Part shown: positions 3,733-36,803 of the stretch, piece by piece
Position numbering within the stretch: the first letter of the stretch is position 1
How the letters are laid out: every line of letters begins with the position of its first letter
From: Candidatus Nealsonbacteria bacterium
GTDB lineage: Bacteria > Patescibacteriota > Minisyncoccia > Minisyncoccales > RBG-13-42-11
DNA: 53,028 nucleotides
Assembly (NCBI GenBank): GCA_026396115.1
Contig: JAPLXL010000006.1
Span: forward strand, 1 to 53,028
Reading direction: 5' to 3'
The notes under the pieces: model-generated
The model's database searches: none
The model's input: the letters and a program-made list of their open reading frames with translations, nothing else
What the model was told of the DNA's origin: nothing
Position numbers and translations under genes: made by a program

Positions 3733-3789
3733 TACCGAGCTTCCGTTTATGGAAGCGAAGTCGAAGAAGAGGATGAAGTCCTCTTCGCC
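3733..3789. repeat. palindromic repeat family copy R1 (arm type II), in the 5' UTR of the RRM gene
   Basis: TACCGAGCTTCCgtttatGGAAGCGAAGTCGAAGAAGAGGAtgaagTCCTCTTCGCC. Its reverse complement closely matches 22610-22665. Confidence 0.8.
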
Positions 3790-3812
3790 TATTAAAATTT
3801 AAAGAGAGCATT

Positions 3813-4148
3813 ATGGCAAAAAAACTATACGTAGGCGGTTTGTCTTATAATACGACCGAAGATACTTTGCGAGATACATTTTCTAAAGCTGGCACCGTCG
3901 AATCGGCAGCTATAATTATTGATAAAATGTCCGGGCGTTCAAAAGGATTCGGTTTTGTTGAGATGTCTTCTGATGAAGAAGCACAAAAAGCTATTAAAAT
4001 GTTTAATGAAAAAGAGCTTGATGGCCGCAAAATTATAGTCAACGAAGCCCGTCCCATGGAGTCGCGACCTCGAGGAGAGTCTGACCGTGGCGATCGAGGA
4101 GGTTTTGGCAGAAATCGTTTTGGCGGAAGTCGTAGAAACGAATGGTAA
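3813..4148 (+). CDS. RRM-type RNA-binding protein with RG-rich tail
   Basis: RNP-2 LYVGGL and RNP-1 KGFGFVEM motifs. C-terminal RGESDRGDRGGFGRNRFGG. Confidence 0.9.
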   Translation: MAKKLYVGGLSYNTTEDTLRDTFSKAGTVESAAIIIDKMSGRSKGFGFVEMSSDEEAQKAIKMFNEKELDGRKIIVNEARPMESRPRGESDRGDRGGFGRNRFGGSRRNEW

Positions 4149-4156
4149 AAATCCAC

Positions 4157-4184
4157 AAAAAATCGCCTTCTCGGCGATTTTTTG
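4157..4184 (+). terminator. rho-independent terminator after the RRM gene
   Basis: AAAAAATCGCC-ttctc-GGCGATTTTTT, which is a stem followed by a T-run. Confidence 0.7.
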
Positions 4185-4219
4185 GTAGAATGGAATAATT
4201 ATTCGCCTGATTCACATTT

Positions 4220-5353
4220 ATGAAAATTTTAATTAGTTCATTAACATATCCTTTGCCCAACGGCGTGACTGTTTCAATAGACGCAAGCGTTGACGGCCTT
4301 ATTGCAGAGGGATATAAGACTCTTATTGTGGCTCCAAGATATAAGACTATTAAACATAGGCCTGAACATTGTCAAGTGCCTTCCTCATCTGTGGCCCGAG
4401 CTATTGGTTCTTTGATCGGGAAAGAGGAAAGAACTTTTGGTGTTACAGCTCGCTACCATATAGAGAAAATTGCAAAAGAGTTTAAGCCGGATATTTACTG
4501 GCTTCATACTTTAACTTGGGCTCCGAACGCTTTTGAATTGCATATGCTTAAATCAAAAAAGCCAAAAGTGCTTTCTTATCATACTTTAGTTGAAGAATAC
4601 GGCAGAATGTACGGAGGAAAAATTGGAGCCGATCTGATGCGCCGACGATCTAAATCGGTTGCCGATAAAATGGATGCAGTCATTGTTCCCAGCAAAGTAA
4701 TTGAACAAAAATTACGCGAATACGGCGTAGTCAAACCAATATATGTTATACCCACCGGTATAAATATTGTTAAAGATTATTTTACCAAAGAAGAACTATG
4801 CGCAAAATTCAGCCTTCCTCCGAATTCAAAAATTCTGCTTTATGTGGGAAGAGTGTGTAAAGAAAAAAATATAGAGGCACTTTTAAAAATGATGGGAGAG
4901 ATTAAAAAGAAAGACAGCAATATATTTTTACTAATTGTCGGACCCGGAGAGATTGAGAAATTTAAAAACACTGTTCAAAACATGAATATAGCAGACAGAG
5001 TTATTTTTGCCGGCTTTTTTCCTGCAAAAGAGACGCAGAGAATGTACGGAGGCAGCGATGTTTTTGTTTTTTCTTCAAAAAGCGAAACGCAAGGGCTTGT
5101 TATTGGAGAAGCAATGATGGCCGAAATACCGGTAGTAGCTCTTGAATCGCAAATTCAGCCGGAAATTTATCCAGAGAGCTTATCTGTTGTGGTTAAAAAT
5201 GAATCACAATTTTCAACTGCAGTTTTGGATATTCTCAAGAATTGCAAAAAAAGAGACGAGATGGTAAAAAAGGCAAAGGAATTTGTTTTGGAAAACTTTT
5301 CGCGGGGAGCAATGACCAAAAAACAAAAAAAATTATTTACCAAGCTTTTGTGA
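4220..5353 (+). CDS. GT4/GT1-family glycosyltransferase
   Basis: 377 aa. C-terminal GT-B signature FSSKSETQGLVIGEAMMAEIPVVA. Confidence 0.8.
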   Translation: MKILISSLTYPLPNGVTVSIDASVDGLIAEGYKTLIVAPRYKTIKHRPEHCQVPSSSVARAIGSLIGKEERTFGVTARYHIEKIAKEFKPDIYWLHTLTWAPNAFELHMLKSKKPKVLSYHTLVEEYGRMYGGKIGADLMRRRSKSVADKMDAVIVPSKVIEQKLREYGVVKPIYVIPTGINIVKDYFTKEELCAKFSLPPNSKILLYVGRVCKEKNIEALLKMMGEIKKKDSNIFLLIVGPGEIEKFKNTVQNMNIADRVIFAGFFPAKETQRMYGGSDVFVFSSKSETQGLVIGEAMMAEIPVVALESQIQPEIYPESLSVVVKNESQFSTAVLDILKNCKKRDEMVKKAKEFVLENFSRGAMTKKQKKLFTKLL

Positions 5354-5395
5354 AGCAAAAGCGAAGGTGGAAAAGAGAACGAAGTTCTTTTTGAC
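5354..5395. repeat. palindromic repeat family copy R2 (degenerate, arm type I)
   Basis: AGCAAAAGCGAAGGTGGAAAAGAGAACgaaGTTCTTTTTGAC starts at the stop codon of the glycosyltransferase gene. Confidence 0.55.
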
Positions 5396-5438
5396 TTAAA
5401 AATCCATAACAAATAAAAGGTTTGATATATCAAAGAGG

Positions 5439-5466
5439 TTTACAAAAATTTAGTGCGGGTTATACT
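5439..5466 (+). promoter_or_regulatory. sigma70-like promoter of ftsZ, geometry implies a leaderless mRNA
   Basis: TTTACA, 16-nt spacer, TATACT. The ATG at 5473 begins 7 nt after the -10 hexamer. Confidence 0.5.
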
Positions 5467-5472
5467 AAGATA

Positions 5473-7038
5473 ATGGCTAAAAATCTTAAGAAAAAGTCAA
5501 CCACCAAGCTTTCGAAGAAAGCGAAGGTGAAGAAGAGAACAAAGTTCTCTTCGCCCACCGAGCTTCTTAAAGAAGCGAGGGTGGACGAGAAAATAAAAAA
5601 GACCAAAATCAGGATAATTGGCATTGGCGGCGGAGGCGGAAACATTGTTTCTGAAATTGCTTCAGAAATATCGAAAGCCAGTTTTATTGTAGCCAACACG
5701 GATATCAAATCGTTAAAAAGCTGCAGCAAGAAGGTGACAAAATTTCAATTTGGCCAGAATTTAACTCATGGCTTGGGCACCGGGATGAATCCTGAGTTGG
5801 GGAAAGCTGCCGCTCAAAGCGAAAAAGAGAGAATAAAAAAGCTTCTAGAGGGTCAGGATTTGTGCATTTTGGTTGTTTGTTTGGGTGGCGGAACGGGATC
5901 CGGAGCCGTTTCAACTTTTGCCAAAATTTCCAAAAACCTGGCTAATCTTACTTACGGAATTTTCACTTTACCGTTTAAGTTTGAAGGAGAAAAGAAAATG
6001 GAAATTGCCATAAATTCTTTAAAAGAAGCAAAGAATCATTTAAACGCAATTACTATTATTCCCAATGAAAAAGTTTTTCAGGTAATTTCCAAAGATACCC
6101 CTCTCAAAGAGGCCTTATCCACCATTAATAAATTTTTGTCTGAAAGTTTGAAGGGACTTATTGAAACAATTTATGAGCCGGGTTTAATAAATATTGATTT
6201 TGCCGATTTAAAAACCATCTTGGAGGGCAGGGGAAGGCTTGCTTATTTAAATACTATTGAGGCACAGCAGAAAGAAGGCGCAATCAAGGATATTGCGGCA
6301 AAAGTGCTTAATTCTCCTTTATATCCTTACACCATTCGGGGAGCAAAAGGAGTTTTGTTTAATATTGCCGGAGAAAAAAACCTTTCTCTCGCTGATGTTA
6401 GTCAAATATCAAAGGCAATTTCTGAGTTGGTAAATCCAGAAGCAAAAATTATTTTTGGAATTTCTCAACACAAAAAGTATTCCAATATTATAAAAACTGT
6501 TTTATTGGCTACAGGTTGCGGGATGAAGATTTTTTCTTCGCCTACCAAGTTTCCGAAGGGAGCGAAGGTTAAAAAGACTTTGCCTACCAAAAAGAAAAAA
6601 AGAAGAGAGAGGAAAGAAGGAAAAGTCAAAAAAGGTTCCTTTTCCTCCACCTCAGCTAAAGCTTCGGTAATTGAAGAGCCCCAGAAGGAAAACCTTCGGT
6701 TTCCTACGGGGCAGGCAAAAGTTGAAAAACCAAAGGTTGGAACAAAAGAACAAGAGAAGACGCCTCCCAAAAAAGTGAAAATTAGGAGGGCGAAGAAAAT
6801 AGATTTTCTTCTTCCACCTTCGCTGTTGCTCGGGAGCACAAAAAAACCAAGAGAAGAAAAATCTCAAGAATCGAAAGAAAAAGAAAAAGAGACAATAGTT
6901 CTAAGCAACAACGAAGAAAAGGTAAGAAAAAACGGCCTCCAGATTAAAAAAGAAGCCGAAGAGCTTGAGAAAGAAATGATTGAAAAAGAAAAAATTTGGG
7001 AAACGCCGGCGTTTTTAAGAAAAAAATTAATTAAATAA
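5473..7038 (+). CDS. ftsZ: cell division protein FtsZ with repeat-derived N-terminal extension and long K-rich C-terminal linker
   Basis: GIGGGGGN, GLGTGMNPELG, GGGTGSGA and the terminal WETPAFLRKK peptide. The ORF-track start at 5422 is a TTG; the ATG at 5473 is preferred. Confidence 0.93.
   Translation: MAKNLKKKSTTKLSKKAKVKKRTKFSSPTELLKEARVDEKIKKTKIRIIGIGGGGGNIVSEIASEISKASFIVANTDIKSLKSCSKKVTKFQFGQNLTHGLGTGMNPELGKAAAQSEKERIKKLLEGQDLCILVVCLGGGTGSGAVSTFAKISKNLANLTYGIFTLPFKFEGEKKMEIAINSLKEAKNHLNAITIIPNEKVFQVISKDTPLKEALSTINKFLSESLKGLIETIYEPGLINIDFADLKTILEGRGRLAYLNTIEAQQKEGAIKDIAAKVLNSPLYPYTIRGAKGVLFNIAGEKNLSLADVSQISKAISELVNPEAKIIFGISQHKKYSNIIKTVLLATGCGMKIFSSPTKFPKGAKVKKTLPTKKKKRRERKEGKVKKGSFSSTSAKASVIEEPQKENLRFPTGQAKVEKPKVGTKEQEKTPPKKVKIRRAKKIDFLLPPSLLLGSTKKPREEKSQESKEKEKETIVLSNNEEKVRKNGLQIKKEAEELEKEMIEKEKIWETPAFLRKKLIK
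5505..5584. repeat. palindromic repeat family copy R3 (composite, arms I+II), in frame in the ftsZ 5' end
   Basis: ...AGCGAAGGTGAAGAAGAGAACaaaGTTCTCTTCGCCCACCGAGCTTCttaaaGAAGCGAGGGTGG. Encodes KAKVKKRTKFSSPTELLKEARV. Confidence 0.75.
6525..6587. repeat. palindromic repeat family copy R4 (arm II), in frame in the ftsZ linker
   Basis: GAAGAtttttTCTTCGCCTACCAAGTTTCCgaaGGGAGCGAAGG plus a degenerate second unit. Encodes SSPTKFPKGAKVKK. Confidence 0.7.
6619..6669. repeat. palindromic repeat family copy R5 (arm III), in frame in the ftsZ linker
   Basis: GGAAAAG...CTTTTCCTCCACCTCAGCTAAAGCTTCGGTA. Encodes FSSTSAKASV. Confidence 0.75.
6786..6836. repeat. palindromic repeat family copy R6 (arm I), in frame in the ftsZ linker
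   Basis: GAGGGCGAAGAAAatagatTTTCTTCTTCCACCTTCGCTGTTGCTCGGGAG. The arms are identical to those of 16356-16406. Confidence 0.85.
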
Positions 7039-11199: not shown

Positions 11200-11927
11200 G
11201 AGAAATTTTATTAAAAATTGACAAATTAAAAGTTAAGGGTAGTGGTAAGGAAATATTAAAAGGAGTAAATCTCCAAATAAAAAGGGGAGAAATTCAGACT
11301 CTTTTGGGTCCCAATGCTTCTGGGAAAAGTACTTTAGCTCAGGTAATTTTGGGTAATCCGAAATATAAAATTACCCAAGGCAGAATTTTCTTTGAAGGTA
11401 AAGAAATTACCAAGTTTTTTCCGGAAAAAAGGGCGAAGTTAGGAATTGCTATGACTTGGCAGTCGCCACCTGCAATAAAAGGAGTAAAGTTTTCCCAACT
11501 TCTGGCGAGAATTTCAACCTTTGGAGGTTCAACCTCCCGAGAGGTAGCGAAGGGGGTTGAACCTAATTTGTTAGAAAGAGAAATAAATGTAGATTTTTCT
11601 GGTGGCGAGAAGAAAATGTCGGAATTAGTGCAAGTAATAGCCCTTAATCCAAAATTAGTAATTTTCGATGAAATAGATTCTGGTTTAGATATTAAAAGAT
11701 TGGAAAAAGCGGCAAAAATAATCAAAAAGGAATTGGTAGATAAAAAAGTTTCAATTTTACTAATCACTCACTCGGGGGCAATTTTGAATTTTTTGAAGCC
11801 AGATATTACCAATGTAATGGTTCAAGGGCGAATCATTTGTCGGGAAAAAGATTACAAAAAAGTTTTAAAGATTATTAAAAAATATGGCTATGAAAAATGT
11901 AAAAAGTGCAAATTACTGGCAGGTTGA
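11196..11927 (+). CDS. sufC: Fe-S cluster assembly ATPase SufC
   Basis: Walker A GPNASGKST, LGNPKY, FSGGEKKM, Walker B VIFDEIDSGLD. Confidence 0.88.
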   Translation: MREILLKIDKLKVKGSGKEILKGVNLQIKRGEIQTLLGPNASGKSTLAQVILGNPKYKITQGRIFFEGKEITKFFPEKRAKLGIAMTWQSPPAIKGVKFSQLLARISTFGGSTSREVAKGVEPNLLEREINVDFSGGEKKMSELVQVIALNPKLVIFDEIDSGLDIKRLEKAAKIIKKELVDKKVSILLITHSGAILNFLKPDITNVMVQGRIICREKDYKKVLKIIKKYGYEKCKKCKLLAG

Positions 11928-12795
11928 TCACGAGGTAAGGAACATTTTTGGAGTAAAAGGAATTACTGTTTTGCCCAGTCCCAGGGCTTGGGAAAAGTTC
12001 GGTTGGACAAGGAAATGGTTTGAAAAAAAACCAAAAGAGGGCTATTTTATTTGGGTAAAAAAACAAGTGGATTTTCCCTTAGCCACCTGCATTACGATTG
12101 CCACTCCCAAAATTTCCCAAAATTTAAACAATTTATTAGTTATCGAAAAAGGAATAAAAGCTAAAGCCATTGTAACTTGCAATGCAGCTGAGAATAAGCT
12201 GTGCGGAAAACATCGAGCAAAAGGTAAATTAATTCTTAAAGATAATGTTTCTTTAGAATATAATCATTTTCATAAATGGGGAGAAAAAGATTTTGTTTCC
12301 CTCGATTATGAGTTTATTCTTGGAAAAAACTCTCAATTGCTCTACACCTATCAAAATTTATTTCCGCCCGAAAATCTTCAATTAAAAACAACGATTTATA
12401 GCAACGAGAACTCTTCTTCTAAATTAAATTTCATCATTAATGGTTTAAATTCTAATATAAAAATCCAAGACATTATTTTCTTAAAAGAAAAATCTGCTCA
12501 GGGAATAGCCAGATTGAGATTGGTCGGAAGAGAAAACAGCCGGATTGAAGCAATTAGCAAAATATTTGCTTTGGCTCCAAGTAAAGGGCATTTAGATTGC
12601 CGGGGCTTATTATTAGACAGAACTGCTAAGATTTCTTTAATACCCGAAATAGTTTGTCAAAATAAAGATGCTCAAATTACCCACGAGGCTTCAATTGGAA
12701 AAATTTCTGAAGAGGAACTAACTTATTTAAGAATGAGAGGATTGAGTGAGGAAGAAGCCATCGATTTAATTGTTAGCGGATTTTTAAATATTTAA
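11884..12795 (+). CDS. SufB/SufD-family Fe-S assembly protein (short)
   Basis: C-terminal THEASIGKISEEELTYLRMRGLSEEEAIDLIVSGF matches the conserved SufBD tail. Overlaps sufC. Confidence 0.8.
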   Translation: MAMKNVKSANYWQVDHEVRNIFGVKGITVLPSPRAWEKFGWTRKWFEKKPKEGYFIWVKKQVDFPLATCITIATPKISQNLNNLLVIEKGIKAKAIVTCNAAENKLCGKHRAKGKLILKDNVSLEYNHFHKWGEKDFVSLDYEFILGKNSQLLYTYQNLFPPENLQLKTTIYSNENSSSKLNFIINGLNSNIKIQDIIFLKEKSAQGIARLRLVGRENSRIEAISKIFALAPSKGHLDCRGLLLDRTAKISLIPEIVCQNKDAQITHEASIGKISEEELTYLRMRGLSEEEAIDLIVSGFLNI

Positions 12796-12797
12796 AA

Positions 12798-12842
12798 ATC
12801 GAAGAAGATTCCTTCTTCTCCACCTCAGCTAAAGCTTCGGTA
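12798..12842. repeat. palindromic repeat family copy R7 (arm III) filling the sufBD-mnmA spacer
   Basis: ATCGAAGAAGattcCTTCTTCTCCACCTCAGCTAAAGCTTCGGTA. Its reverse complement matches 31991-32035 at 43/45 positions by hand alignment. Confidence 0.9.
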
Positions 12843-12843
12843 G

Positions 12844-13956
12844 ATGAAAAAGATAAATAAGAAAATAGTAGTGGCAATGTCTGGCGGATTAGATTCCTCG
12901 GTGGCAGCAGCCCTTTTAAAAAAGGGCGGTTTTAAGGTTGTGGGAGTTTTTTTGAAATTAGCGGATTTACCAACTTTCAAAGAAAATGAAAGAAGGGCCA
13001 AAAGAATCGCTAAAATTTTGAAGATACCATTTCTGGTTTTAGATTTAAGAAAAGAATTTAAAAAAAGAATTGTTGATTATTTTTTAAAAGAAAATAAGCG
13101 AGGACTGACCCCTAATCCCTGCGTTGTTTGCAACAAGGAAATTAAATTCGGTCTTTTGTTGGAGAAAACGCTCAAACTGAATGCTGATTTTATGGCCACT
13201 GGTCATTATGCCCGAACAAATTTTTTCAAAAATTTCACTATCCCGAGCAACAGCGAAGGGGGAAGAAGAAAACTTGCTTTCTTCGCCCTCGTGAAAAATT
13301 TGCAAAAAATAAAATTAATGAAAGGAAGAGATAAAAATAAAGATCAGTCCTATTTTTTGTGGATGTTGAACCAAAAACAATTAAAAAGAGTTTTATTTCC
13401 AATTGGAGATTATACCAGAAAAGAAGTTGAGGGTTTGGCAAAGAAATTTAAATTATCTTTTTTAACTAAGGTCCCCAAGTCGCAGGAAATTTGCTTTATT
13501 GAAATCACAATTGAAGATTTCTTAAAAAGATATTTAAAAACAAAACCGGGCCATATCGTAGATGCTAACGGAAAAATACTGGAAAAACACGAAGGATTGT
13601 ATTTCTATACTATTGGGCAGAGAAAAGGAATTGGGCTTTCCGGAGGTCCTTATTATGTTTTAAACAAGGACTTAAAGAGAAATCTTTTAATTGTCACCAA
13701 AAATGAAAATGACTTATATAAAAAAGAATTAAGCGTTAAAAAAGTTAATTGGATTTCAGGAAAAGAACCCAAACTTCCTCTAAAAGTTAAGGCAAAAATA
13801 CGCTACCGTCACAAAGCTTCACCGGCTACAGCATACAAAATACTAAATACTAAATATAAAATACTATTAAGCTCGCCTCAACGAGCCATCACTCCCGGCC
13901 AATCAATAGTTTTTTATAGGGGACAGGAGCTTCTGGGCGGTGGAATAATTTGTTAA
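12844..13956 (+). CDS. mnmA: tRNA-specific 2-thiouridylase MnmA carrying an in-frame repeat insertion
   Basis: PP-loop VVAMSGGLDSSVAA, CNKEIKF, ATGHYAR, KDQSYFL. Confidence 0.92.
   Translation: MKKINKKIVVAMSGGLDSSVAAALLKKGGFKVVGVFLKLADLPTFKENERRAKRIAKILKIPFLVLDLRKEFKKRIVDYFLKENKRGLTPNPCVVCNKEIKFGLLLEKTLKLNADFMATGHYARTNFFKNFTIPSNSEGGRRKLAFFALVKNLQKIKLMKGRDKNKDQSYFLWMLNQKQLKRVLFPIGDYTRKEVEGLAKKFKLSFLTKVPKSQEICFIEITIEDFLKRYLKTKPGHIVDANGKILEKHEGLYFYTIGQRKGIGLSGGPYYVLNKDLKRNLLIVTKNENDLYKKELSVKKVNWISGKEPKLPLKVKAKIRYRHKASPATAYKILNTKYKILLSSPQRAITPGQSIVFYRGQELLGGGIIC
13241..13291. repeat. palindromic repeat family copy R8 (arm I), in frame inside mnmA
   Basis: TCCCGAGCAACAGCGAAGGGGGAAGAAGAAAACttgcTTTCTTCGCCCTCG. 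Its reverse complement matches 16356-16406 at 48/51. Encodes IPSNSEGGRRKLAFFAL. Confidence 0.92.
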
Positions 13957-13982
13957 CTCTTTACGATTAAGAAAGATAAGGG

Positions 13983-14010
13983 TTGACAGGGTGATTGATT
14001 GAAATAGAAT
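13983..14010 (+). promoter_or_regulatory. sigma70-like promoter of the S8 protease gene
   Basis: TTGACA, 16-nt spacer, TAGAAT. 87-nt leader. Confidence 0.55.
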
Positions 14011-14097
14011 AAAATTAGGAATTAAAACTAATAAAGGTCGACCCCAGTAGTAGAGCAAAACTCGCTACGGGGTAAGAATTTCATTAAAAACAAAAAA

Positions 14098-15822: not shown

Positions 15823-15850
15823 AATTATTTAGCCAAAATACCTTGTGGGC

Positions 15851-15881
15851 AAAATCCCTCAATTTTGAGGGATTTTGTTTT
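15851..15881 (+). terminator. rho-independent terminator after the protease gene
   Basis: AAAATCCCTCA-attt-TGAGGGATTTT followed by GTTTT. Confidence 0.75.
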
Positions 15882-16034
15882 GGGCAAAAATAAGATATAA
15901 TTAAAAATCATATTTGGTTTTTTCCAGGAGCAATTTAAGTTTTAGAATATGGATGTCTTTTTTACATTTTAATTAGCACATTTTTTTGTCTTTTTGTCGG
16001 GAATTGGTATAATGTTTTTGATGAAATTATTCTG

Positions 16035-16682
16035 ATGTCTATTGTTTTAACAGATGAAAATTTTGAAAGTGAAGTTTCTGGCGCAAAAAAACCGGTTTTG
16101 GTCGATTTTTGGATGCAGGGCTGCCATCCTTGTTTTTTGCTTTCTCCGATTTTAGAAAAATTAGCCCGGGAATTTGAAAAGAAAATAGTTTTTGCGAAAG
16201 CAAATCTTGACGACATTTCCCTTATAGCTCAAAAATACGGTATTAACGCGGCTCCGACAATGATTCTTTTTAAAGAAGGAAAACCGGTAAGCGGATTTAT
16301 CGGATTAAAACCGGAAGAAACAATAAGGCCGTGGCTTGAGGAAAACTTAAAAGAGGAGGGCGAAGAAAGCAAGCTTTCTTCTTCCCCTTTCGCTGTTGCT
16401 CGGGAGAATGAAAAAATTAATAAACTAATTCAGGAAGTCAAAGAATACGCTAAAAAGAACGGATTTTTCCTTAATCCAAACAGAAAAGTGGTAGAGGGGA
16501 TTGTCAAAAGTTTATTGGAAAGAGAGAAAAAATTCGGCGGAAGATTCTGTCCCTGTAGGAGAATAACCGAAAATAATGAAGAGGACAAAAAAATTATTTG
16601 TCCCTGTGTTTATCATCTTCAGGAGCTTGAAAAAGAAGGCAAATGCCTTTGTGGACTATTTGTAAAAAACATAATAGAATAA
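16035..16682 (+). CDS. thioredoxin domain fused to a ferredoxin-thioredoxin-reductase catalytic-subunit-like domain
   Basis: N-terminal half: VDFWMQGCHPCFLLSP (CxxC) thioredoxin fold. C-terminal half: FCPCRR...ICPCVYH...CLCGLF, the FTRc CPC/CPC/CxC pattern. The two halves are joined by a repeat-encoded linker. Confidence 0.8.
   Translation: MSIVLTDENFESEVSGAKKPVLVDFWMQGCHPCFLLSPILEKLAREFEKKIVFAKANLDDISLIAQKYGINAAPTMILFKEGKPVSGFIGLKPEETIRPWLEENLKEEGEESKLSSSPFAVARENEKINKLIQEVKEYAKKNGFFLNPNRKVVEGIVKSLLEREKKFGGRFCPCRRITENNEEDKKIICPCVYHLQELEKEGKCLCGLFVKNIIE
16356..16406. repeat. palindromic repeat family copy R9 (arm I), forms the Trx-FTRc interdomain linker
   Basis: GAGGGCGAAGAAAGCaagcTTTCTTCTTCCCCTTTCGCTGTTGCTCGGGAG. 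Encodes EGEESKLSSSPFAVARE. Confidence 0.92.
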
Positions 16683-16717: not shown

Positions 16718-16760
16718 CCGAATCGCAATGAAGGGTGAAGAAGAGATTTATCTCTTCGAC
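16718..16760. repeat. palindromic repeat family copy R10 (arm IV)
   Basis: CCGAATCGCAATGAAGGGTGAAGAAGAGATTTATCTCTTCGAC. Same subfamily as 17779-17820 and 36762-36803. Confidence 0.8.
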
Positions 16761-16781
16761 TACTAAACAAATTAACAAAAT

Positions 16782-26645: not shown

Positions 26646-27511
26646 ATAAAAACTTAAAGGATTATTTTGAGAAGGCTCAGAAGGAAAGGTGGGCGATAGG
26701 GCAGTTTAATATTTCCAATTTAGAAGCCTTACGAGCAATAGTTCAGGCCACTAAAAATTTAAAAAGCCCGGTAGTTATTGGTACCTCAGAGGGAGAAAGT
26801 AAGTTCCTGGGATTAAAACAAGCGGTGGCCCTGGTCAAGGTTTTTCGTAAAGAAACAGGCCTTCCGATTTTTTTAAACCTTGACCATGGAAAGAGTTTTG
26901 AGTATATTAAAAGAGCCATCAAAGCCGGGTACGATAATATTCATTTTGACGGTTCAGGGTCGTCGCTTGAAAAGAATATAGCAATTACCAAAAAAATTGC
27001 AGAATACTGCCACAGGAGAAAAGTTTTAATTGAAGGAGAAATAAATTCTATAGCGGGTTCTTCCGAAATCCTTAAAAAAAGACCCGAGATTAAAGAAGTA
27101 AACTTAACCAAACCGAAAGATGCCTTAAAATTTATAAAAGAAACTAAAGTTGATAGCTTGGCAATAAATATAGGAACTTTTCATGGTATGGAAGTTGACC
27201 GGGAAAACCCTCGAATTTACCTCCAGAAACTGAGAGAGATAAAAGAAAGAATAGGGGAGAAAGTATTTTTGGTTTTACACGGAGGTTCTGGCACCCCAAA
27301 AGAAGACATTAAAGAGGCAATAAAACTTGGCATAGTAAAGATTAATATCAATACCGAATTAAGGGTTATTTACACAGAGACTTTAAAGAAAACATTTAAA
27401 GAAAAGCCAGAAGAAACTACTCCTTATAAATATTTTCCGAAAGTAATTTCATCGATCCAAAAACTAGTCGAAGAAAAAATTAAATTATTTGGTTCGATTA
27501 ATAAAATATAA
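26639..27511 (+). CDS. fba: class II fructose-bisphosphate aldolase (alternative ATG at 26621)
   Basis: WAIGQFNISNLE, NLDHG, LVLHGGSGTP. Confidence 0.9.
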   Translation: MLNKNLKDYFEKAQKERWAIGQFNISNLEALRAIVQATKNLKSPVVIGTSEGESKFLGLKQAVALVKVFRKETGLPIFLNLDHGKSFEYIKRAIKAGYDNIHFDGSGSSLEKNIAITKKIAEYCHRRKVLIEGEINSIAGSSEILKKRPEIKEVNLTKPKDALKFIKETKVDSLAINIGTFHGMEVDRENPRIYLQKLREIKERIGEKVFLVLHGGSGTPKEDIKEAIKLGIVKININTELRVIYTETLKKTFKEKPEETTPYKYFPKVISSIQKLVEEKIKLFGSINKI

Positions 27512-27512
27512 A

Positions 27513-27563
27513 GGCGAAAAGAACGAAGTTTTCTTCTTCGCCTTCGCTTCCATCGGAAGCTCG
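27513..27563. repeat. palindromic repeat family copy R15 (arm II) filling the fba-rplY spacer
   Basis: GGCGAAAAGAACgaagTTTTCTTCTTCGCCTTCGCTTCCatcGGAAGCTCG. Confidence 0.88.
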
Positions 27564-27567
27564 TCAA

Positions 27568-28248
27568 ATGATTACTTTATCAGCTAAAATTAGGAAAGAT
27601 TTAGGTAAAAAAGTAAAAAAAATCAGAGAAAAAGGAATAATTCCCGCGATTTTATACGGGCCGAAGATAAAAAATATTCCTTTAGAGGTTGACTTGAAAG
27701 AATTTGAAAAAGTTTATCAGGGGGCCGGAGAAAGTTCTTTGATTCATCTTCAGATAGATAATAAAAAGTTTTTGGTTTTGATTTATGATCTTGAAATTGA
27801 TGCCATTTCTCAAAAGCCAATTCATATTGATTTTTACCAGCCCAAATTGGATGAAGAAATTACAGCAACCGTTCCTTTGGTTTTTGAAGGAACAGCTGCG
27901 GCCGTAAAGGACTTGGGGGGAACTTTGGTTAGAAATATTCATGAATTAGAGGTAAAAGCCCTGCCCCAGAACCTTCCTCACGAGATTAAAGTGGATATAA
28001 GTAAATTGAAAACTTTTGAGGATAATATTTTAGTTAAAGATTTGATTATTCCCAAAGAAGTGAAAATTCTTAAAACGCCTCAGGAGACCATTGCTTTTGT
28101 TTCAGAGCCAGAAAAAATAGAAGAAGAATTAGAAAAACCAATAGAGGAAAAAGTGGAAGAAGTTGAAAAAGTAGAAGGAAAGAAGCCGTCTGAAGACGAA
28201 ATTGCGGAAGAAAAAGAAACAAAAGAGACAAAACAAAAAGTGAAATGA
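27568..28248 (+). CDS. rplY: ribosomal protein bL25 (Ctc form) with acidic tail
   Basis: LSAKIRKDLGKKVKKIREKGIIPAILYG and HIDFYQP. E/K-rich C-terminus. Confidence 0.9.
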   Translation: MITLSAKIRKDLGKKVKKIREKGIIPAILYGPKIKNIPLEVDLKEFEKVYQGAGESSLIHLQIDNKKFLVLIYDLEIDAISQKPIHIDFYQPKLDEEITATVPLVFEGTAAAVKDLGGTLVRNIHELEVKALPQNLPHEIKVDISKLKTFEDNILVKDLIIPKEVKILKTPQETIAFVSEPEKIEEELEKPIEEKVEEVEKVEGKKPSEDEIAEEKETKETKQKVK

Positions 28249-29732
28249 AAATCTCTGATTTTGTCAAGCTAATTTTATTAATTTTCTTGGTTTCGGTTTT
28301 AGTCTTGTCGAATTTTTCTGGTTTTGCCCTCCCGAGCAACGGCGAAAGTGGAAGAAGAGGATTCATCGTCTTCGCCCAAGAAGAATGTAAAACCAAAGAG
28401 GAGTGCGAGGTCTTATTGAAAAAGTACGAGGAAGAAATTAAAAAATTAGAAGGGGTTATTGGTCAAACCGAACAAGAGCAGAGAACAATTCAAAACCAAA
28501 TCAACGCCCTGAGATCAACAATTCAAAAACTTGACCTTCAGATTCAGCAGGGCAATATAATGATAGAGGATTTGAGTTACCAGATAAAAGATACCGATGG
28601 TTCAATAGAACAAACATCCTTAAAAATTGAAGATTCAAGAGCTAAATTGGCAAATATTTTACAGATAATTAATGAAGAAGACCAGACCTCAATTATTGAG
28701 GTTTTGCTTTCCGAAGCGACTTTATCCGATTTTTTTGACAATTTAATGGCTTTGGAAACCTTGAATTTAAAAAGCCATGAATTTTTAGAGGAAATTAAAA
28801 ATCTTAAAATAACTTTGGAGGGGCAAAAACAATCTTTAGATACTGAAAAGGGGGACATGGAAAGGGTTGTTAAGATTCAATATGGGCAAAAACAGCAAAG
28901 CCAGGCAGCCAGAAACGAACAGGAATATTTTTTAAAATTAACCGAAGTTCAAAAACAGCAGTATCTTAAAGAAAAGGAAGCTGCCGAGAAAATAGCAGCT
29001 GAAATTAGAGAAAGACTTTTTCGATTAATTGGAATTCCTGATATTCAGGCTCCTACTTTTGGAGAGGCACTTCAGATTGCTAATGCCGTTACAAAAGTGG
29101 TGAAGATCAGATCTGCCTTTCTTCTCGGCGTAATTTCCGCAGAATCAGCTCTGGGTAGAAATGTTGGTCAGTGTTATATAACCAACAGCCAGACCGGCGG
29201 GGGCGTTTATATTAAAAGTGGGAACCCCGTGAATCGTATTATGCATCCCACTCGCGATGTGCCCATTTTTTTAAGAATTACAGGTGATAATTTTTCCCAA
29301 ATTCCTATTTCCTGTTGGATACCGATATGTTATTCATCTGCAACAGGAAAATTCTCTAACAATGTATCAATTGACAAGACGGGCAATATTATCTGCCCTG
29401 CAGGTTACGGTCCTTGGGGTTTCGGGGGAGCGATGGGACCGGCTCAATTTATTCCCAGCACCTGGGCATTGTATGAGGGAGAGATAAGAAGTTTGTTTGG
29501 AGTTTCTACTCCTAACCCCTGGAATGTTTATGATGCTTTTGCCGCTTCATCTTTATATTTATATGAATTGGGGGCAGGACAAAAAACGTTAGCCGCTGAA
29601 AGTAATGCAGCCAATCGTTATAGCGGAGGATACAGTTGGTACGCTAGTGATGTAATGCGTCGCGCTTCCTGTATTCAGGATTTTATTGATAAGGGTTCTA
29701 TGTCCTCAGAGTGCCAGCAATTAATATTTTGA
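28245..29732 (+). CDS. secreted coiled-coil protein with C-terminal lytic transglycosylase-like domain
   Basis: Signal/TM segment LILLIFLVSVLVLS, a coiled coil of about 250 aa, then ISAESALGRNVGQCY and GAMGPAQFIPSTW (MltB/SLT_2-like motifs). Confidence 0.75.
   Translation: MKISDFVKLILLIFLVSVLVLSNFSGFALPSNGESGRRGFIVFAQEECKTKEECEVLLKKYEEEIKKLEGVIGQTEQEQRTIQNQINALRSTIQKLDLQIQQGNIMIEDLSYQIKDTDGSIEQTSLKIEDSRAKLANILQIINEEDQTSIIEVLLSEATLSDFFDNLMALETLNLKSHEFLEEIKNLKITLEGQKQSLDTEKGDMERVVKIQYGQKQQSQAARNEQEYFLKLTEVQKQQYLKEKEAAEKIAAEIRERLFRLIGIPDIQAPTFGEALQIANAVTKVVKIRSAFLLGVISAESALGRNVGQCYITNSQTGGGVYIKSGNPVNRIMHPTRDVPIFLRITGDNFSQIPISCWIPICYSSATGKFSNNVSIDKTGNIICPAGYGPWGFGGAMGPAQFIPSTWALYEGEIRSLFGVSTPNPWNVYDAFAASSLYLYELGAGQKTLAAESNAANRYSGGYSWYASDVMRRASCIQDFIDKGSMSSECQQLIF
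28329..28377. repeat. palindromic repeat family copy R16 (arm I), in frame just after the signal peptide
   Basis: CTCCCGAGCAACGGCGAAAGTGGAAGAAGAGGAttcaTCGTCTTCGCCC. Encodes LPSNGESGRRGFIVFAQ. Confidence 0.85.
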
Positions 29733-30776: not shown

Positions 30777-30844
30777 TAATTTGTTTGTTGGTTGATTAGC
30801 TTAGATAAGCAACCGCCTCTATTACTGAGCTTTTATGTAATAAA

Positions 30845-30877
30845 AGCGAAAGTTAAGAAGAATGAATATTCTTCGCC
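30845..30877. repeat. palindromic repeat family copy R17 (short, arm I-like) between rpmE and prfA
   Basis: AGCGAAAGTTAAGAAGAATgaatATTCTTCGCC abuts the rpmE stop codon. Confidence 0.65.
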
Positions 30878-31104
30878 TATTTTTTCTTTTTCTTAGTTTC
30901 TTCTTTTCTCGCCAATCTTTTATTGAATTTCTGAATCTGGCCCATGGCGTCAACAATTTTTCCTTTTCCGGTATAAAAAGGATGACAGGCAGAACAAATT
31001 TCCACTTCAATGAATTCCTTTGTTGAACCAATCGTAAAAGTGTTGCCGCAAGCGCAACGGGCTTTAGTATTTGGGTAGTATTTTGGATGTATATCTTTTT
31101 TCAT
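30877..31104 (-). CDS. rpmE: ribosomal protein bL31 (4-Cys form)
   Basis: [27 protein letters not shown]. Confidence 0.93.
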
Positions 31105-31206
31105 CGAGTTTTAACTTGTTAAAAACGAAGATCGAAATGAAGCTTTAGCTTCATTGAGTATCAACCTTTTTCAATTTATCATAAAATTAATTATTAGGCA
31201 ACCCCC

Positions 31207-31241: not shown

Positions 31242-32060
31242 ATGATAGAAATCAAAAAGAAAATTAAAGAATCCGATTTTGGCATAAATACTGAGGAGAT
31301 GGCTCAGGCCGGCCTTCACTTTGGCCATCGAACCTCCAGAGTTCATCCTAAAATGAAACCTTATTTGTTTGGGGCAAGAAATGCGGTTCATATTATAGAT
31401 TTAGAAAAAACTGCAGAAAAACTTAAAGAAGCCCTAAACTTTATTCAGCAATTAATTTCGGAAAATAAAGTTTTGCTTTTGGCAGGAACAAAAATTCAGG
31501 CAAAGGATTTAGTTAAGTCAACCGCTAAAGAGTGCGGCTTGCCCTATGTTTCAGAACGGTGGCTGGGCGGAACTTTCACAAATTTTGAAACTATTAAAAA
31601 AAGAATTGATTATTTTAAAGACTTGGAAAGGAAAAAAGCCGAGGGAGAGTTAGAAAAATACACAAAAAAAGAAAGAGCTGATATAGACAAAGAATTAAGA
31701 ATTCTTGAATTGAAGGTCGGAGGAATTAAAAACTTGATTAAATTGCCCGAGGCCATTTTTGTTTTAGATATGAGAAAAGACGCGCTAGCCATAAAAGAAG
31801 CAAAAAGAAAGGGGGTTAAAGTTATTGCCATAGTTGACACTAATACCGATCCTACCTTGGTTGATTATCCGATACCGGCTAATGATGACGCTATAAGTTC
31901 TCTTAAATATATTTTAGAGAAAGTTAAAGATGCTATTTTAAAAGCGAAACCTAAAATAGAAGGCGAAGAGGATAAATCCTCTTCTTCACCTACCGAAGCT
32001 TCAGCTGAGGTGGAGAAGAAGGAATCTTCTTCGACTTCGCTTCCTTCGGAAGCTCGATAA
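31242..32060 (+). CDS. rpsB: ribosomal protein uS2 with a repeat-encoded C-terminal tail of about 33 aa
   Basis: AGLHFGHRTSRVHPKMKPYLFG, ERWLGGTFTNF, DTNTDP. Confidence 0.95.
   Translation: MIEIKKKIKESDFGINTEEMAQAGLHFGHRTSRVHPKMKPYLFGARNAVHIIDLEKTAEKLKEALNFIQQLISENKVLLLAGTKIQAKDLVKSTAKECGLPYVSERWLGGTFTNFETIKKRIDYFKDLERKKAEGELEKYTKKERADIDKELRILELKVGGIKNLIKLPEAIFVLDMRKDALAIKEAKRKGVKVIAIVDTNTDPTLVDYPIPANDDAISSLKYILEKVKDAILKAKPKIEGEEDKSSSSPTEASAEVEKKESSSTSLPSEAR
31962..32056. repeat. palindromic repeat family copy R18 (double unit, arms III+II), in frame at the rpsB 3' end
   Basis: GGCGAAGAGGAtaaaTCCTCTTCTTCACCTACCGAAGCTTCAGCTGAGGTGGAGAAGAAGgaatCTTCTTCGACTTCGCTTCCttcGGAAGCTCG. Encodes EGEEDKSSSSPTEASAEVEKKESSSTSLPSEAR. 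Confidence 0.92.
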
Positions 32061-32504
32061 ATGATAAAAATTGAACAAATTAAACAATTAAGGGAAGAAA
32101 CTGCTGTTTCTGTTCAGGATTGCAAAAAAGCTCTTATTGATGCAGGCGGCGATCTGAAAAAAGCAAAAGAAATTTTAAAAAAATGGGGGAAAGATTTGGC
32201 GGCAAAAAAAGCAAGTCGGGGGACGGAACAGGGAATTATTGCCAGCTACATTCATCCTAATAAAAAAATTGGCGTTCTTTTAGAGTTGGACTGCGAAACA
32301 GATTTTGTCGCCAAATCACAGGATTTTCAAAATTTGGTTCACGAATTGTGTTTGCAGATTGCCGCCACCAGGGAAGAGAATCCGCTTTTAGAACAGTTCT
32401 GGATAAAAGACCAAACAAAAACCATAAAAGATTTGATTAATGATTATATTTCAAAAACGGGAGAGAATATTGTTGCTAAAAGATTTACCAGATACGAGAT
32501 ATGA
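32061..32504 (+). CDS. tsf: elongation factor Ts, short form (147 aa)
   Basis: N-terminal UBA-like IKQLREETAVSVQDCKKALIDAGGDLKKAKEILKKWG, then ELDCETDFVAKSQDFQ. Confidence 0.88.
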   Translation: MIKIEQIKQLREETAVSVQDCKKALIDAGGDLKKAKEILKKWGKDLAAKKASRGTEQGIIASYIHPNKKIGVLLELDCETDFVAKSQDFQNLVHELCLQIAATREENPLLEQFWIKDQTKTIKDLINDYISKTGENIVAKRFTRYEI

Positions 32505-33984: not shown

Positions 33985-34122
33985 TAGAATTAGAAGAGAC
34001 AAATCTATGGCAAAAAAGAAAGCAAAAAAGAAAAAGGTTTGTTAGTGAGATTAGGGATTGAATGAAGAAAAGATTAGAAAAGTCAGGAAGTCTCTTCCTG
34101 GTTTTTTATATCCTGTATGATT

Positions 34123-34175
34123 GTCGAAAGAGAATTTCATTCTCTTTCTTACCTTCGCTTCCTTCGGAAGCTTGG
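34123..34175. repeat. palindromic repeat family copy R19 (arm II) in the 16S leader
   Basis: GTCGAAAGAGAATttcATTCTCTTTCTTACCTTCGCTTCCttcGGAAGCTTGG. Confidence 0.8.
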
Positions 34176-34208
34176 TGATGGAAGAACTTTAAAAATTAAA
34201 TATGGAAC

Positions 34209-34233: not shown

Positions 34234-34244
34234 TCTATTTTTTT

Positions 34245-35746
<1,502 letters not shown>

Positions 35747-35782
35747 CTAATTTTTTAAATTAGAAAAATAGTGTCGACTGGA

Positions 35783-35810
35783 GTCGAAGGGGAAGAATTC
35801 TCTCTTTAAC
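35783..35810. repeat. degenerate palindromic repeat family copy R20 in the 16S trailer
   Basis: GTCGAAGGGGAAGAATTCTCTCTTTAAC. Contains the boxA-core-like CTCTTTAAC. Confidence 0.5.
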
Positions 35811-35847
35811 TCCAAGGTGTTGGTCGAGGAGCCGTGAAATCTCGACT

Positions 35848-35872
35848 TTCGGAACAACTTTAAGTAACTGAT
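35848..35872 (+). other. 3' half of the pre-16S processing stem
   Basis: TTCGGAACAACTTTAAGTAACTGAT is complementary to 34209-34233. Confidence 0.75.
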
Positions 35873-35873
35873 A

Positions 35874-35907
35874 AAAAAACGCATTTTTTCAGACTGCGTT
35901 TTTTTTT
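35874..35907 (+). terminator. rho-independent terminator directly after the 16S unit
   Basis: AAAAAAACGCA-ttttttcagac-TGCGTTTTTTTTT. Confidence 0.7.
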
Positions 35908-35950
35908 GTAGTAAAATTAAAAAATGATGTCATGTCGTCTTTGACAAAAG

Positions 35951-36172
35951 ATGGCGAAATATAATTTTGATGAAATAAAATTTTGGCGAACTATTCAGAA
36001 AAATGAGGTTGATTTTGTGGTCGGGGGAGAAATTCCCTTTTCAACAAATTTCAATAACTTTCTACGAATTTCTATTATATTTCTTGTAATTATCGCTTGG
36101 ATTTTTCCGGATGACCGCAGGTTTGGCAAAAGCCGGCAATTCAGCCGGAGGTTAAAGAAGCAGTGCTGGTAG
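35951..36172 (+). pseudogene. remnant of the C-terminal end of a DUF4143/AAA-ATPase-type gene
   Basis: IKFWRTIQKNEVDFVVGG resembles the conserved C-terminal WR..G.EVDFV motif of that family. The rest is low-complexity read-through with no upstream ATPase domain. Confidence 0.35.
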
Positions 36173-36227
36173 CTCAATACATTTAAATAGAACTTGAAAC
36201 ATCCAAAAATTTTAAATAAAATAAAAT

Positions 36228-36256
36228 GGCAGAGAATAGTTCTCTGCCATTTTTTG
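36228..36256. terminator. bidirectional-looking terminator hairpin
   Basis: GGCAGAGAA-tagt-TCTCTGCC flanked by an A-run and a T-run. Confidence 0.6.
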
Positions 36257-36288
36257 TCTGGGGGATGTATTTGGTAAACTTAGCTTGT

Positions 36289-36370
36289 CAACGCGAAAGT
36301 TGAAAAGTAATTCTTTTTGGAATCATCGCACAACGCGAAAGTTGAAAGATGATTCTCTAGAATCATCGCA
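36289..36370. repeat. two tandem 42/40-nt direct repeats, each with internal palindromes
   Basis: CAACGCGAAAGTTGAAAAGTAATTCTTTTTGGAATCATCGCA followed by CAACGCGAAAGTTGAAAGATGATTCTCTAGAATCATCGCA. The second unit holds the 9-bp-arm palindrome GATGATTCT-ct-AGAATCATC. Confidence 0.85.
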
Positions 36371-36376
36371 CAAATT

Positions 36377-36619
36377 TTAGCCCAGATGTATTTTGCCTTT
36401 TGATTCAATCTTTCGTAAGAAAAGCTCAATGTCTTCTGGTTTGTAAATTCGATAATTATTTAAAGGATTTCGATAAGCAATTAATTTTCCTGACTTATCC
36501 CAATTTCGGAGAGTTAAAGGAGTAACTCCCAACAAGTCAGCTGTTCGTTTGACGGTGAGGTATCTTTTTTCAATTTTTGGTTTTTTTATATGATGAAGTC
36601 CGATAGAAAAATTTTTCAT
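36377..36619 (-). CDS. small MerR-type HTH DNA-binding protein (80 aa, DNA-binding domain only)
   Basis: YLTVKRTADLLGVTPLTLRNWDKSGKLIAYRNPLNNYRIYKPEDIELFL matches the MerR/excisionase-type HTH pattern. Confidence 0.75.
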   Translation of the reverse strand: MKNFSIGLHHIKKPKIEKRYLTVKRTADLLGVTPLTLRNWDKSGKLIAYRNPLNNYRIYKPEDIELFLRKIESKGKIHLG

Positions 36620-36673
36620 ATTATTAATGTTTATTAATCTTTTTTAGGATAAAACTTTAATAAACTTTATTAT

Positions 36674-36712
36674 ATTATAATCTTGTTCGAATAACCTTGT
36701 CAATGTGGATAA
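36674..36712 (-). promoter_or_regulatory. promoter of the MerR-type gene with an abutting perfect TTATCCACA box
   Basis: Minus-strand reading: TTATCCACA (36712-36704), TTGACA (36703-36698), 17-18-nt spacer, TTATAAT. Confidence 0.6.
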
Positions 36713-36761
36713 CTCGATATCCTCCCATATCGGAGAGGGGTCGGGAGAACCCTCTGGTTGC

Positions 36762-36803
36762 TGAATCGCAATGAAGCGAAAGATGAGATTTATCTCATCG
36801 CAC
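36762..36803. repeat. palindromic repeat family copy R21 (arm IV) in the divergent regulatory region
   Basis: TGAATCGCAATGAAGCGAAAGATGAGATTTATCTCATCGCAC. Confidence 0.75.

Follow-up and report, generated by a model that had tools for sequence, protein, structure and literature searches.

We identified a family of palindromic mini-elements in a 53,028-nucleotide (nt) contig of a Candidatus Nealsonbacteria bacterium (JAPLXL010000006.1, positions 1 to 53,028; hereafter the window). Self-BLASTN, nhmmer and a covariance model together gave about 22 units in 33 kb, between positions 3731 and 36800, with scores of 14 to 72 bits. The units fold into paired hairpins and are missing from orthologous genes. 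They are read in frame in several protein-coding genes, and are present or absent as discrete blocks between genomes that are 90-95% identical. We conclude, with a probability of roughly 0.8, that they are a non-autonomous, selfish and mobile family, comparable to Rickettsia palindromic elements (RPEs) and to MITEs (miniature transposable elements with inverted repeats), which is active or recently active in a Nealsonbacteria-like lineage of Parcubacteria. An initial annotation, made from the sequence, had proposed an RPE-like modular palindromic family that occupies spacers, rRNA flanks and reading frames; absence from orthologues, folding, model scores and polymorphism all agree with that proposal. 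We found no description of such elements in the candidate phyla radiation (CPR)/Patescibacteria in the literature searched. They are intragenic palindromic mini-elements, themselves of a known kind, and the evidence for their ongoing turnover is unusually clear.

Repeat finding and self-BLASTN with a word size of 9 recovered 19 loci, spread over 3733 to 36373 and in either orientation; pairwise E-values reach 6e-16, and copies in unrelated genes share 82-93% nucleotide identity. Copies make up about 4% of the 33-kb core-gene region. Models built with nhmmer for three unit types scored 14-67 bits in the window, far above the maxima over 50 dinucleotide shuffles (9.4, 10.8 and 12.3 bits), and also recovered copies that had not been used for training (5556-5594, 30823-30879 and 36761-36796). 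Both comparisons had been put forward with the initial annotation as checks, and its count of at least 21 copies is in line with ours. It had described an element of 30-100 nt; the family is real, but the basic mobile unit is smaller (45-57 nt), and the larger forms are nested composites. One of its two hand alignments, 12798-12842 against the reverse complement of 31991-32035, matches at 43 of 45 positions exactly as reported. The other, 13241-13291 against the reverse complement of 16356-16406, reaches the reported 48 of 51 only after a shift of one base in register (18 of 51 as written); a comparison of the find_repeats type pairs 13222-13290 with 16356-16424 over 69 nt at 87% identity.

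The covariance model, built from 46 units, detected 15 sites in the window at E<=0.015. At the same threshold, it had a single match (L016, 25 bits) among 36 other CPR and 6 Chlorobi loci that total about 690 kb; some 600 kb of other CPR sequence is almost free of the family. An nhmmer search of 80 GTDB loci, from a set of representatives that does not include the window's own genome, gave no match at E<0.01 save one weak one. Hence, the exact family appears to be lineage-restricted. A metagenome scan with a pattern for one type of unit (arm I, see below) matched at least 120 contigs, 115 of them low-GC and CPR-like with about 270 units; counted over low-GC metagenome contigs from many samples, the family comprises 291 units on at least 115 contigs. 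The same pattern had no match in IMG/VR, and we saw no trace of a phage vector. A search with an element-encoded peptide against a database of 5.8 billion sequences, for which such a peptide is too short, returned four weak matches, including Candidatus Nealsonbacteria metagenome-assembled genomes (MAGs).

Each mobile unit consists of two hairpins, an arm and a GAAG-rich hairpin that we call H, and composites reach about 105 nt. H has the form GGCGAAGARRA-loop-TYYTCTTC, with an 8-bp stem (GAAGARRA-loop-TYYTCTTC). The arm has an outer stem of 3-5 bp, then a GA//GAA internal loop, which is asymmetric, and an inner stem-loop whose length varies; of 83 distinct arms, 73 have the GA on the 5' side and 81 the GAA on the 3' side. 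Four separate arms had been proposed for the family, but all are variants of this one architecture. They differ in the inner hairpin, which reads GC-NNNN-GC for arm I, GCTTCC-loop-GGAAGC (and numerous compensated variants) for arm II and AGC-TTTA-GCT for arm III, whereas arm IV is a decayed arm I. The best-preserved units have 47-57% GC and decayed ones 25-42%, in a genome of 36% GC. We considered the GA//GAA loop as a possible K-turn or hammerhead and rejected this on sequence grounds and because no Rfam model matched.

Four contigs that are 90-95% identical to parts of the window (L129, L193, L201 and L203) allowed orthologous sites to be compared. We detected at least 12 presence/absence differences that involve blocks of 44-58 nt, in both directions, at least nine of them with matching flanks, so that the block polymorphism anticipated by the initial annotation is indeed found between near-identical genomes. 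Four differences separate the window from L129 and L193: a 44-nt unit nested in the arm loop of the L129 counterpart of the 5336 unit, a 57-nt intergenic unit, a rearranged FtsZ linker (6520-6675, relative to L129), and an extra 54-nt unit in L193 exactly at the H/arm junction of the Trx-FTRc copy. Nine events of 45-58 nt separate it from L201 and L203. Five of these are units present in the window and absent, with matching flanks, from the relative. They are a 47-nt intergenic unit of H and arm IV (16719-16765, minus strand; missing in L201); a 45-nt unit of degenerate H and arm IV (17776-17820, minus) between a promoter-like site and the start of the gene at 17823, missing in L201 with identical flanks; a 45-nt unit of arm III and H (18593-18637, minus), in frame at the N-terminus of glutaredoxin (grx), which is missing in L201 and in four more distant orthologues; a 48-nt unit of H and arm I (21896-21943, minus) that adds 16 codons to the acetyl-CoA synthetase gene acs and is missing in L201 and L203; and block 22606-22663 of the H and arm II unit at 22606-22668 (plus), which supplies the last 14 codons and the stop of pduL and is missing in L203 and in L201, the latter keeping a TAGTCGA remnant. 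The other four are carried by a relative and not by the window: one lies within prfA, one upstream of rpmE, one in acs at 20708 and one where acs meets pduL. Other pairs of metagenome contigs that are at least 95% identical differ by three independent arm II units, each of exactly 57 nt.

At the junctions of these blocks, clean filled/empty pairs have 0-4 nt of microhomology (TACC at acs, AA at grx) and no target duplication of fixed length. Flank logos show that conservation stops three bases before GGCGAAG. On the arm side, 3-4 variable bases are followed by a nearly invariant Y-R-A; the A at its fixed position is found in 24 of 24 arm II units and 68 of 71 arm I units. The Y-R-A bases are also present in the empty alleles of clean events, and are therefore probably a target preference. 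The element's own CGAAG motifs supply Y-R-A sites, which would explain nesting at junctions.

We infer that the blocks move by transposition-like insertion catalysed in trans. Our leading guess for the mobiliser, which we hold only tentatively, is a HUH/Y1-like or similar enzyme that would recognise the imperfect hairpin at the DNA level. Units come and go as discrete blocks, leaving no target duplication of fixed length, and often land beside or inside other units at the H/arm junction, giving modular composites. Because five of the six frames of a unit are typically open, copies could persist in genes: with hydrophilic, probably disordered peptides encoded in the two most used frames, insertions in multiples of three would be tolerated in loops, linkers and termini, and the remaining insertions would be purged by purifying selection.

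The alternative that survives best, although we consider it unlikely, requires no dedicated enzyme. Host replication and recombination errors would both spread and remove the units: stalling at stable hairpins (the CGAAG mini-hairpin motifs) would lead to template switching and to gene conversion among copies, in both cases through GAAG-rich microhomology. The variable microhomology fits this explanation, as do GAAGA-like motifs enriched in one flank (0.37 versus 0.11 per 25 nt), the wholesale replacement of H stems with compensating changes in orthologous copies (seen in the comparison with L193), nested insertions at unit junctions and imprecise deletion remnants. However, block lengths are sharp (the arm I core is 46 nt long in 60 of 62 units, and three independent events are of exactly 57 nt), several junctions have no microhomology at all, and the near-invariant Y-R-A at a fixed distance looks like the specificity of an enzyme.

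A second alternative, which we regard as improbable, is that the units are classical MITEs moved by cut-and-paste by an IS630/Tc1-mariner-type DDE transposase with TA target duplication, copies without terminal inverted repeats (TIRs) being decayed or internally deleted. A subfamily of uniform 67-nt elements in nine contexts does carry imperfect TIRs of 13-14 nt (ATCAAC-N1-2-CCCGAG ... CTCGGG-N2-GTTGAT) and is flanked by TA at each end in eight of the nine; four copies in the window (3731, 21896, 22606 and 30821) also have TA on both sides. Yet the TIRs are absent from the window copies and from all polymorphic units, so the form that has moved recently among the 90-95% identical genomes is not the TIR form. 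Moreover, clean filled/empty pairs show neither a TA nor any other fixed-length duplication, no parent insertion sequence (IS) was found in about 2 Mb, and TA, being its own reverse complement, may simply belong to the inverted repeat.

We also considered whether the hairpins act in RNA. As a group, units fold better than shuffled sequences, as expected from the initial annotation, with a mean z of about -3 whichever strand is folded; values for single units lie between -0.7 and -7.5, and a few decayed copies are inconspicuous. In the H stem of 46 units, 97% of alignment cells are paired, the three inner pairs have 17, 18 and 7 double compensatory changes, and none of 500 shuffles reaches the observed covariation. 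The outer pairs of the arm covary (C:G in 44 cases, A:T in 22), the inner stems vary with compensation, and columns that allow an alternative pairing (GCGAAG/CTTCGC and GAG/CTC) are nearly invariant. Watson-Crick pairs account for 706 of the 752 pairs in 94 distinct H stems; G:T is no more favoured than A:C, and wobble shows no bias towards the sense strand. Thus, the constraint acts on a DNA palindrome rather than on a single transcript.

It is accordingly very unlikely that the units serve as functional RNA elements (for instance terminators, hairpins for RNase processing or stability, or regulatory motifs), selected on the transcript rather than mobile as DNA. The compensatory changes, the many intergenic copies that adjoin stop or start codons or lie in 5' leaders (that of the 16S rRNA included), and UUCG in some arm loops on one strand are what such a role would predict. 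Against it, in addition to the symmetry of the H stems, units occur in both orientations to transcription (84 sense and 51 antisense for arm I), most lie within coding sequence, they have no T-run, and none was called a terminator in the sense orientation. A scan with Rfam 15 found no unit that matches a curated model: only the 16S rRNA and one tRNA passed, and a single chance match below threshold overlaps a unit. Presence/absence at orthologous sites of near-identical genomes would also be unexpected for a required regulatory site.

Thirteen units in the window are read in frame without a stop codon; their hosts are ftsZ, mnmA, trx-FTRc, grx, acs, pduL, rpsB, the glycosyltransferase tail and open reading frame (ORF) 28245-29732. 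Those in ftsZ comprise a tandem pair of arm II units, of which the second has a degenerate H, in the N-terminal tail (5497-5600, minus; ATG start at 5473), a degenerate H with arm II (6520-6584) and an arm III with H (6612-6675), both on the minus strand in the disordered C-terminal linker, and a unit of H and arm I in the same linker (6784-6840, plus) that reads RRAKKIDFLLPPSLLLGS and scores 51 bits with nhmmer and 71.8 bits with the covariance model. Units of H and arm I are also found in mnmA (13236-13292, minus; IPSNSEGGRRKLAFFALV), where the unit is present in L193, in the linker of the thioredoxin-FTRc fusion (16354-16410, plus; EGEESKLSSSPFAVARE; 72 bits with the covariance model), and directly after the N-terminal hydrophobic segment of ORF 28245-29732 (28325-28380, minus), a copy shared with the L201 orthologue. 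A composite of nested units, H - arm III - H - arm II (31958-32062, plus; z of -7.5), forms the C-terminal tail and stop of rpsB and extends into the start codon of tsf. The initial annotation had named eight host genes. Seven of them hold: ftsZ (N-terminal tail and C-terminal linker), mnmA, trx-FTRc, grx, acs, and the C-terminal tails of pduL and rpsB. In the eighth, ORF 28245-29732, the copy is confirmed but the label 'lytic transglycosylase' is not; we found only sub-threshold SLT_2/PcsB matches and a weak SLT_2 flag on the L201 orthologue. To these hosts we add the glycosyltransferase gene 4220-5353, whose last codons and stop are overlapped by a unit of H and arm II (5336-5398, minus), and sufC, which contains a tentative arm-only variant (CTCCC-GA-...-GAA-GGGGG; 11527-11562, minus) that is marginal at 8.6 bits. 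The latter is bracketed by GTTCAAC/GTTGAAC, with a local net gain of 6 amino acids relative to orthologues.

The coding segments are insertions relative to orthologues. The MnmA segment IPSNSEGGRRKLAFFALV is missing in all 26 aligned orthologues, one from Chlorobi included. In Acs, TRATAKGEEEDKSSSP is a clean 16-codon block between KKLF and (D/G)QELGD, and the peptide that spans the insertion junction reads ...KKLFTRATAKGEEEDKSSSPTDQELGD... In an alignment of 121 Acs sequences (the window and its 120 closest homologues, 72-90% identical), the insertion occupies this site in only five, the window included, and a remnant is left in one more; it is missing in the two closest homologues (90% and 89%). 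The segments in the Trx-FTRc linker, the grx N-terminus, the pduL and rpsB tails, and the FtsZ N-terminal tail and C-terminal linker are likewise insertion-like. Distant orthologues that share the segments, which would have pointed to ancestral protein sequence, were not found; the mnmA and acs orthologues in particular lack them. In an AlphaFold model of Acs, the insert falls in a low-confidence segment (residues 616-648; predicted local distance difference test score, pLDDT, below 50), consistent with a disordered surface loop; the model is of moderate quality (mean 70), with low values elsewhere in the C-terminal domain as well.

Of the 291 units, 64% are stop-free in ORFs of at least 120 codons, compared with 85% of random positions, and most are ORF-internal. 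Five of the six frames are open in 46 of 68 full arm I units, as against 3% of random 54-mers. Coding copies use five reading frames, in both orientations, but 38 of 48 use two frames that both give acidic, serine-rich GEE[DN]K.SSSP-like peptides, and hydrophobic readings are rare. The unrelated peptides that the five frames give include EGEENKFSSSPFAVARE, SRATAKGEEEDLSSSP, LPSNSEGGRRKxIFFAL and RRAKKIxFLLPPSLLLG. Block lengths are 45, 47, 49, 51 and 57 nt between genes, and 45, 48, 54 and 57 nt within them. We therefore rejected an inherent multiple-of-three length for the unit, given the intergenic blocks of 47 and 49 nt, and attribute the multiples of three in genes to selection rather than to a property of the element. 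That the peptides are protein modules (low-complexity linkers or tags) kept by selection on the protein, with DNA similarity as a by-product, is refuted as a primary explanation: despite the predominance of the acidic frames and the location of copies in linkers and tails, one DNA sequence is read in five frames and both orientations, filtered by tolerance, into unrelated peptides, about a third of units are non-coding (copies in the rRNA leader included), nucleotide identity is 82-93% across unrelated genes, and orthologues lack the segments.

Several observations weigh against a mobile family. Neither the window nor some 840 kb of element-bearing DNA yielded a transposase or other mobiliser, in a weak phmmer test that used only sequences of the IS608 TnpA and the E. 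coli RAYT (REP-associated tyrosine transposase) as queries. There was also no IS-sized element bounded by the terminal inverted repeats (in about 2 Mb, no pair of them is 130-5000 nt apart). Units have mixed orientations relative to genes, unlike the strong strand bias of IS200/IS605 elements. The acs site is filled in four lineages at 72-75% identity and empty in the two closest relatives, a distribution that needs a hot spot, recombination or repeated precise loss. As junctions have 0-4 nt of microhomology instead of a target duplication, gain and loss could be templated, of a recombination type, and single polymorphisms could be deletions; L201 retains a remnant at pduL. Lastly, all the comparison sequences are metagenome assemblies.

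We compared the mobile family with known systems. RPEs (Ogata et al. 2000, summarised in PMC10969869) are elements of about 100-150 bp in families 1-10 of Rickettsia. The likeness to that description is close in behaviour: palindromic repeats in a small, reduced genome, with in-frame, stop-free copies in unrelated housekeeping genes as well as copies in spacers and RNA-gene flanks, absent from orthologues, adding peptide segments at tolerated positions, and with no transposase known. By contrast with RPEs, our units are shorter (45-57 nt, with composites to about 105 nt, and so outside the RPE length range), their host belongs to the CPR/Parcubacteria rather than to the Alphaproteobacteria, the unit is modular, with two hairpins and a conserved GA//GAA loop, and there are a TIR-bearing, TA-flanked subfamily and clear ongoing polymorphism between 90-95% identical genomes. 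Hence, we do not file the units as RPEs; behaviour matches, whereas size, host and architecture differ, in a comparison by description rather than by sequence.

The TA-flanked bacterial MITEs (Correia/CREE of Neisseria, RUP of S. pneumoniae and Nezha of cyanobacteria) are similarly short, non-autonomous, abundant and hairpin-folding; they resemble our 67-nt subfamily in having TIRs that end in TA, and our units in nesting within one another. Unlike them, our units are much smaller, most copies have no TIRs, the junctions examined have no target duplication, and most copies are intragenic and translated rather than intergenic. Repetitive extragenic palindromic (REP) sequences and their mosaics (BIMEs), BOX elements and the REPIN-RAYT system share imperfect palindromes in modular mosaics, compensatory maintenance of hairpins, absence of target duplication and a plausible HUH mobiliser. 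However, REP and BOX elements are extragenic by definition, whereas 64% of our units are in ORFs; and there is neither a conserved GTAG-type head nor a RAYT gene in the element-bearing loci, as judged from the weak phmmer search, with partial genome coverage. The palindrome-associated elements derived from IS200/IS605 (PATEs) also have hairpin-defined ends, no target duplication, as found here, and a short flank motif at a fixed distance from the hairpin. PATEs insert immediately 3' of a specific tetra- or pentanucleotide, with a strong strand (replication) bias. In our family, the conserved motif is 4-5 variable host bases from the inferred junction instead of abutting it, the orientation bias is weak, no TnpA was found, and the units are shorter than known PATEs. 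The yeast mitochondrial genome, AT-rich and compact, hosts mobile GC clusters, GC-richer palindromic mini-elements that proliferate and sometimes enter coding regions. These are an analogy only, in that GC-richer units occupy an AT-rich, compact genome; sequences, host and compartment are unrelated.

The genomes of CPR/Patescibacteria are considered highly streamlined and to leave little space for selfish DNA, and yet this element is found inside ftsZ, rpsB, mnmA, acs and prfA. Units account for most of the length differences between the 90-95% identical genomes, and help to explain CPR-specific insertions in protein alignments. If they are mobile, a second group of reduced symbionts would have come independently to the RPE strategy, in which an element survives among densely packed genes by being translatable. 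Gene calling places small spurious ORFs on tandem units, and MAG assembly and strain typing are probably affected too. In the public annotations of Nealsonbacteria MAGs (P0001-P0004), 'hypothetical proteins' of 61-71 amino acids are made solely of tandem units in frame; they are probably gene-calling artefacts produced by the elements. Small units with sharp boundaries, a bulged hairpin and a target motif at a fixed distance offer a tractable substrate for finding the mobilising enzyme.

The remaining copies in the window lie between genes or next to RNA genes. A unit of H and arm II (3731-3793, minus; 63 bits with nhmmer) lies between the UvrD/PD-(D/E)XK helicase-nuclease gene and an RRM gene. 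Arm III with H (12793-12846, minus; 65 bits) fills the sufD-mnmA spacer and overlaps the sufD stop and mnmA start codons; it belongs to a repeat pair of 93% identity. Another H and arm II unit (27510-27568, plus; 59 bits) fills the spacer from fba to the L25 gene, and one that was not used for training (30821-30881, minus; 14.4 bits) lies between prfA and rpmE. Near the rRNA, H with arm II (34121-34184, plus; 54 bits) occupies the 16S leader, upstream of the processing stem 34209-34233/35848-35872, and a variant arm IV with H (36759-36800, minus) lies in the spacer between the 16S rRNA gene and a giant ORF. The repeat at 36289-36373 is a local tandem duplication, and its membership of the family is uncertain.

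Several unrelated families of tiny palindromes were also present or absent between near-identical contigs: a 66-nt element with TG on both sides (L154 3781-3846), a 73-nt element with a perfect inverted repeat and flanked by CATA (L091 1492-1566), a 74-nt element with the inverted repeat CACCCTGTTAAAT (L188 6100-6175) and a 93-nt element (L162 7532-7626). Parcubacteria relatives from GTDB (L013-L022) have their own GC-rich hairpin insertions at various loop positions of mnmA, for example L014 1160-1192, L018 10604-10654, L019 10367-10399, L015 2193-2213 and 2887-2907, and L022 10376-10453. The L014 insertion, CCCGCCGAAGCTTTAGCGAAGGCGGG, has the same arm design as arm III, and that of L018 has an arm and a GAAG hairpin. 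Given these insertions, the phenomenon looks broader than the GAAG-hairpin family. A motif of the FtsZ linker, CCTACGGGGCAGGCAA (about 6703-6718), is missing at that place in L129 and recurs in the L015 mnmA insertion (TTCCCTACGGGGCAGGCAAG); it may belong to another repeat family. It is possible, although we would not presume it, that the GAAG-hairpin family is one member of a CPR-wide class of hairpin micro-elements of 45-75 nt, to which the GC-rich mnmA hairpins of many Parcubacteria and the polymorphic elements of 66, 73 and 74 nt would also belong, moved without target duplication by a hairpin-recognising enzyme that reads the GA//GAA arm and Y-R-A, and that this class is the main source of indels and lineage-specific protein insertions.

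The window has 37% GC and nearly all its genes are on the plus strand. It encodes a UvrD-type helicase-nuclease, ftsZ, enolase, suf genes, mnmA, the Trx-FTRc fusion and gapA, followed by acs, pduL, ppdK, fba, L25, prfA, rpsB and a short tsf, as well as a lone 16S rRNA gene (34241-35746) and an ORF of 4910 amino acids. Among named organisms, the closest relatives are MAGs of Candidatus Nealsonbacteria and Minisyncoccales (65-66% identity for mnmA, 73% for Acs), indicating that the genome belongs to the Parcubacteria (CPR/Patescibacteria). A small rpmE (L31) on the minus strand, at about 30880-31105 between prfA and rpsB, is under the 80-amino-acid ORF cut-off and was identified by synteny with L201. 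The 16S rRNA gene is enclosed by a 25-nt inverted repeat (34209-34233/35848-35872), probably a processing stem, and no 23S gene follows it. The 1.2-kb spacer that comes next (35750-36960) contains the 42-nt tandem duplication at 36289-36373 and a sub-threshold sraA-like Rfam match (36167-36259, E=0.04).

The giant ORF (36966-51698) has internal tandem repeats with periods of 192 nt (about 43017-45714) and 69 nt (about 48055-48725), raised GC (0.42-0.48) and reversed GC skew; its Pfam matches are weak only (MG2 and WxL-interacting-protein). It contains no hairpin units, where about 5-6 would be expected from the density elsewhere, and this could reflect recent acquisition or strong selection. 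Positions 1-3570 of the window are also free of units. A segment of about 2 kb (about 13980-15990) with a subtilase (S8) gene (14098-15822) separates mnmA from trx-FTRc in the window and is missing in L193, where the two genes are adjacent. At its left edge is a different palindrome, CCCCAGTAGTAGAGC...GCTACGGGG (about 14042-14072), which resembles the inverted repeat CCCGGTAGTAG of the 73-nt element, polymorphic between L091/L118 and L121. Between 12841 and 13980, identity of the window to L193 is 100% for about 120 nt that surround the mnmA unit, but only about 75% in the 5' third of mnmA, where L193 has a CxxC-containing segment that is missing in the window; this mosaic pattern suggests recombination between lineages.

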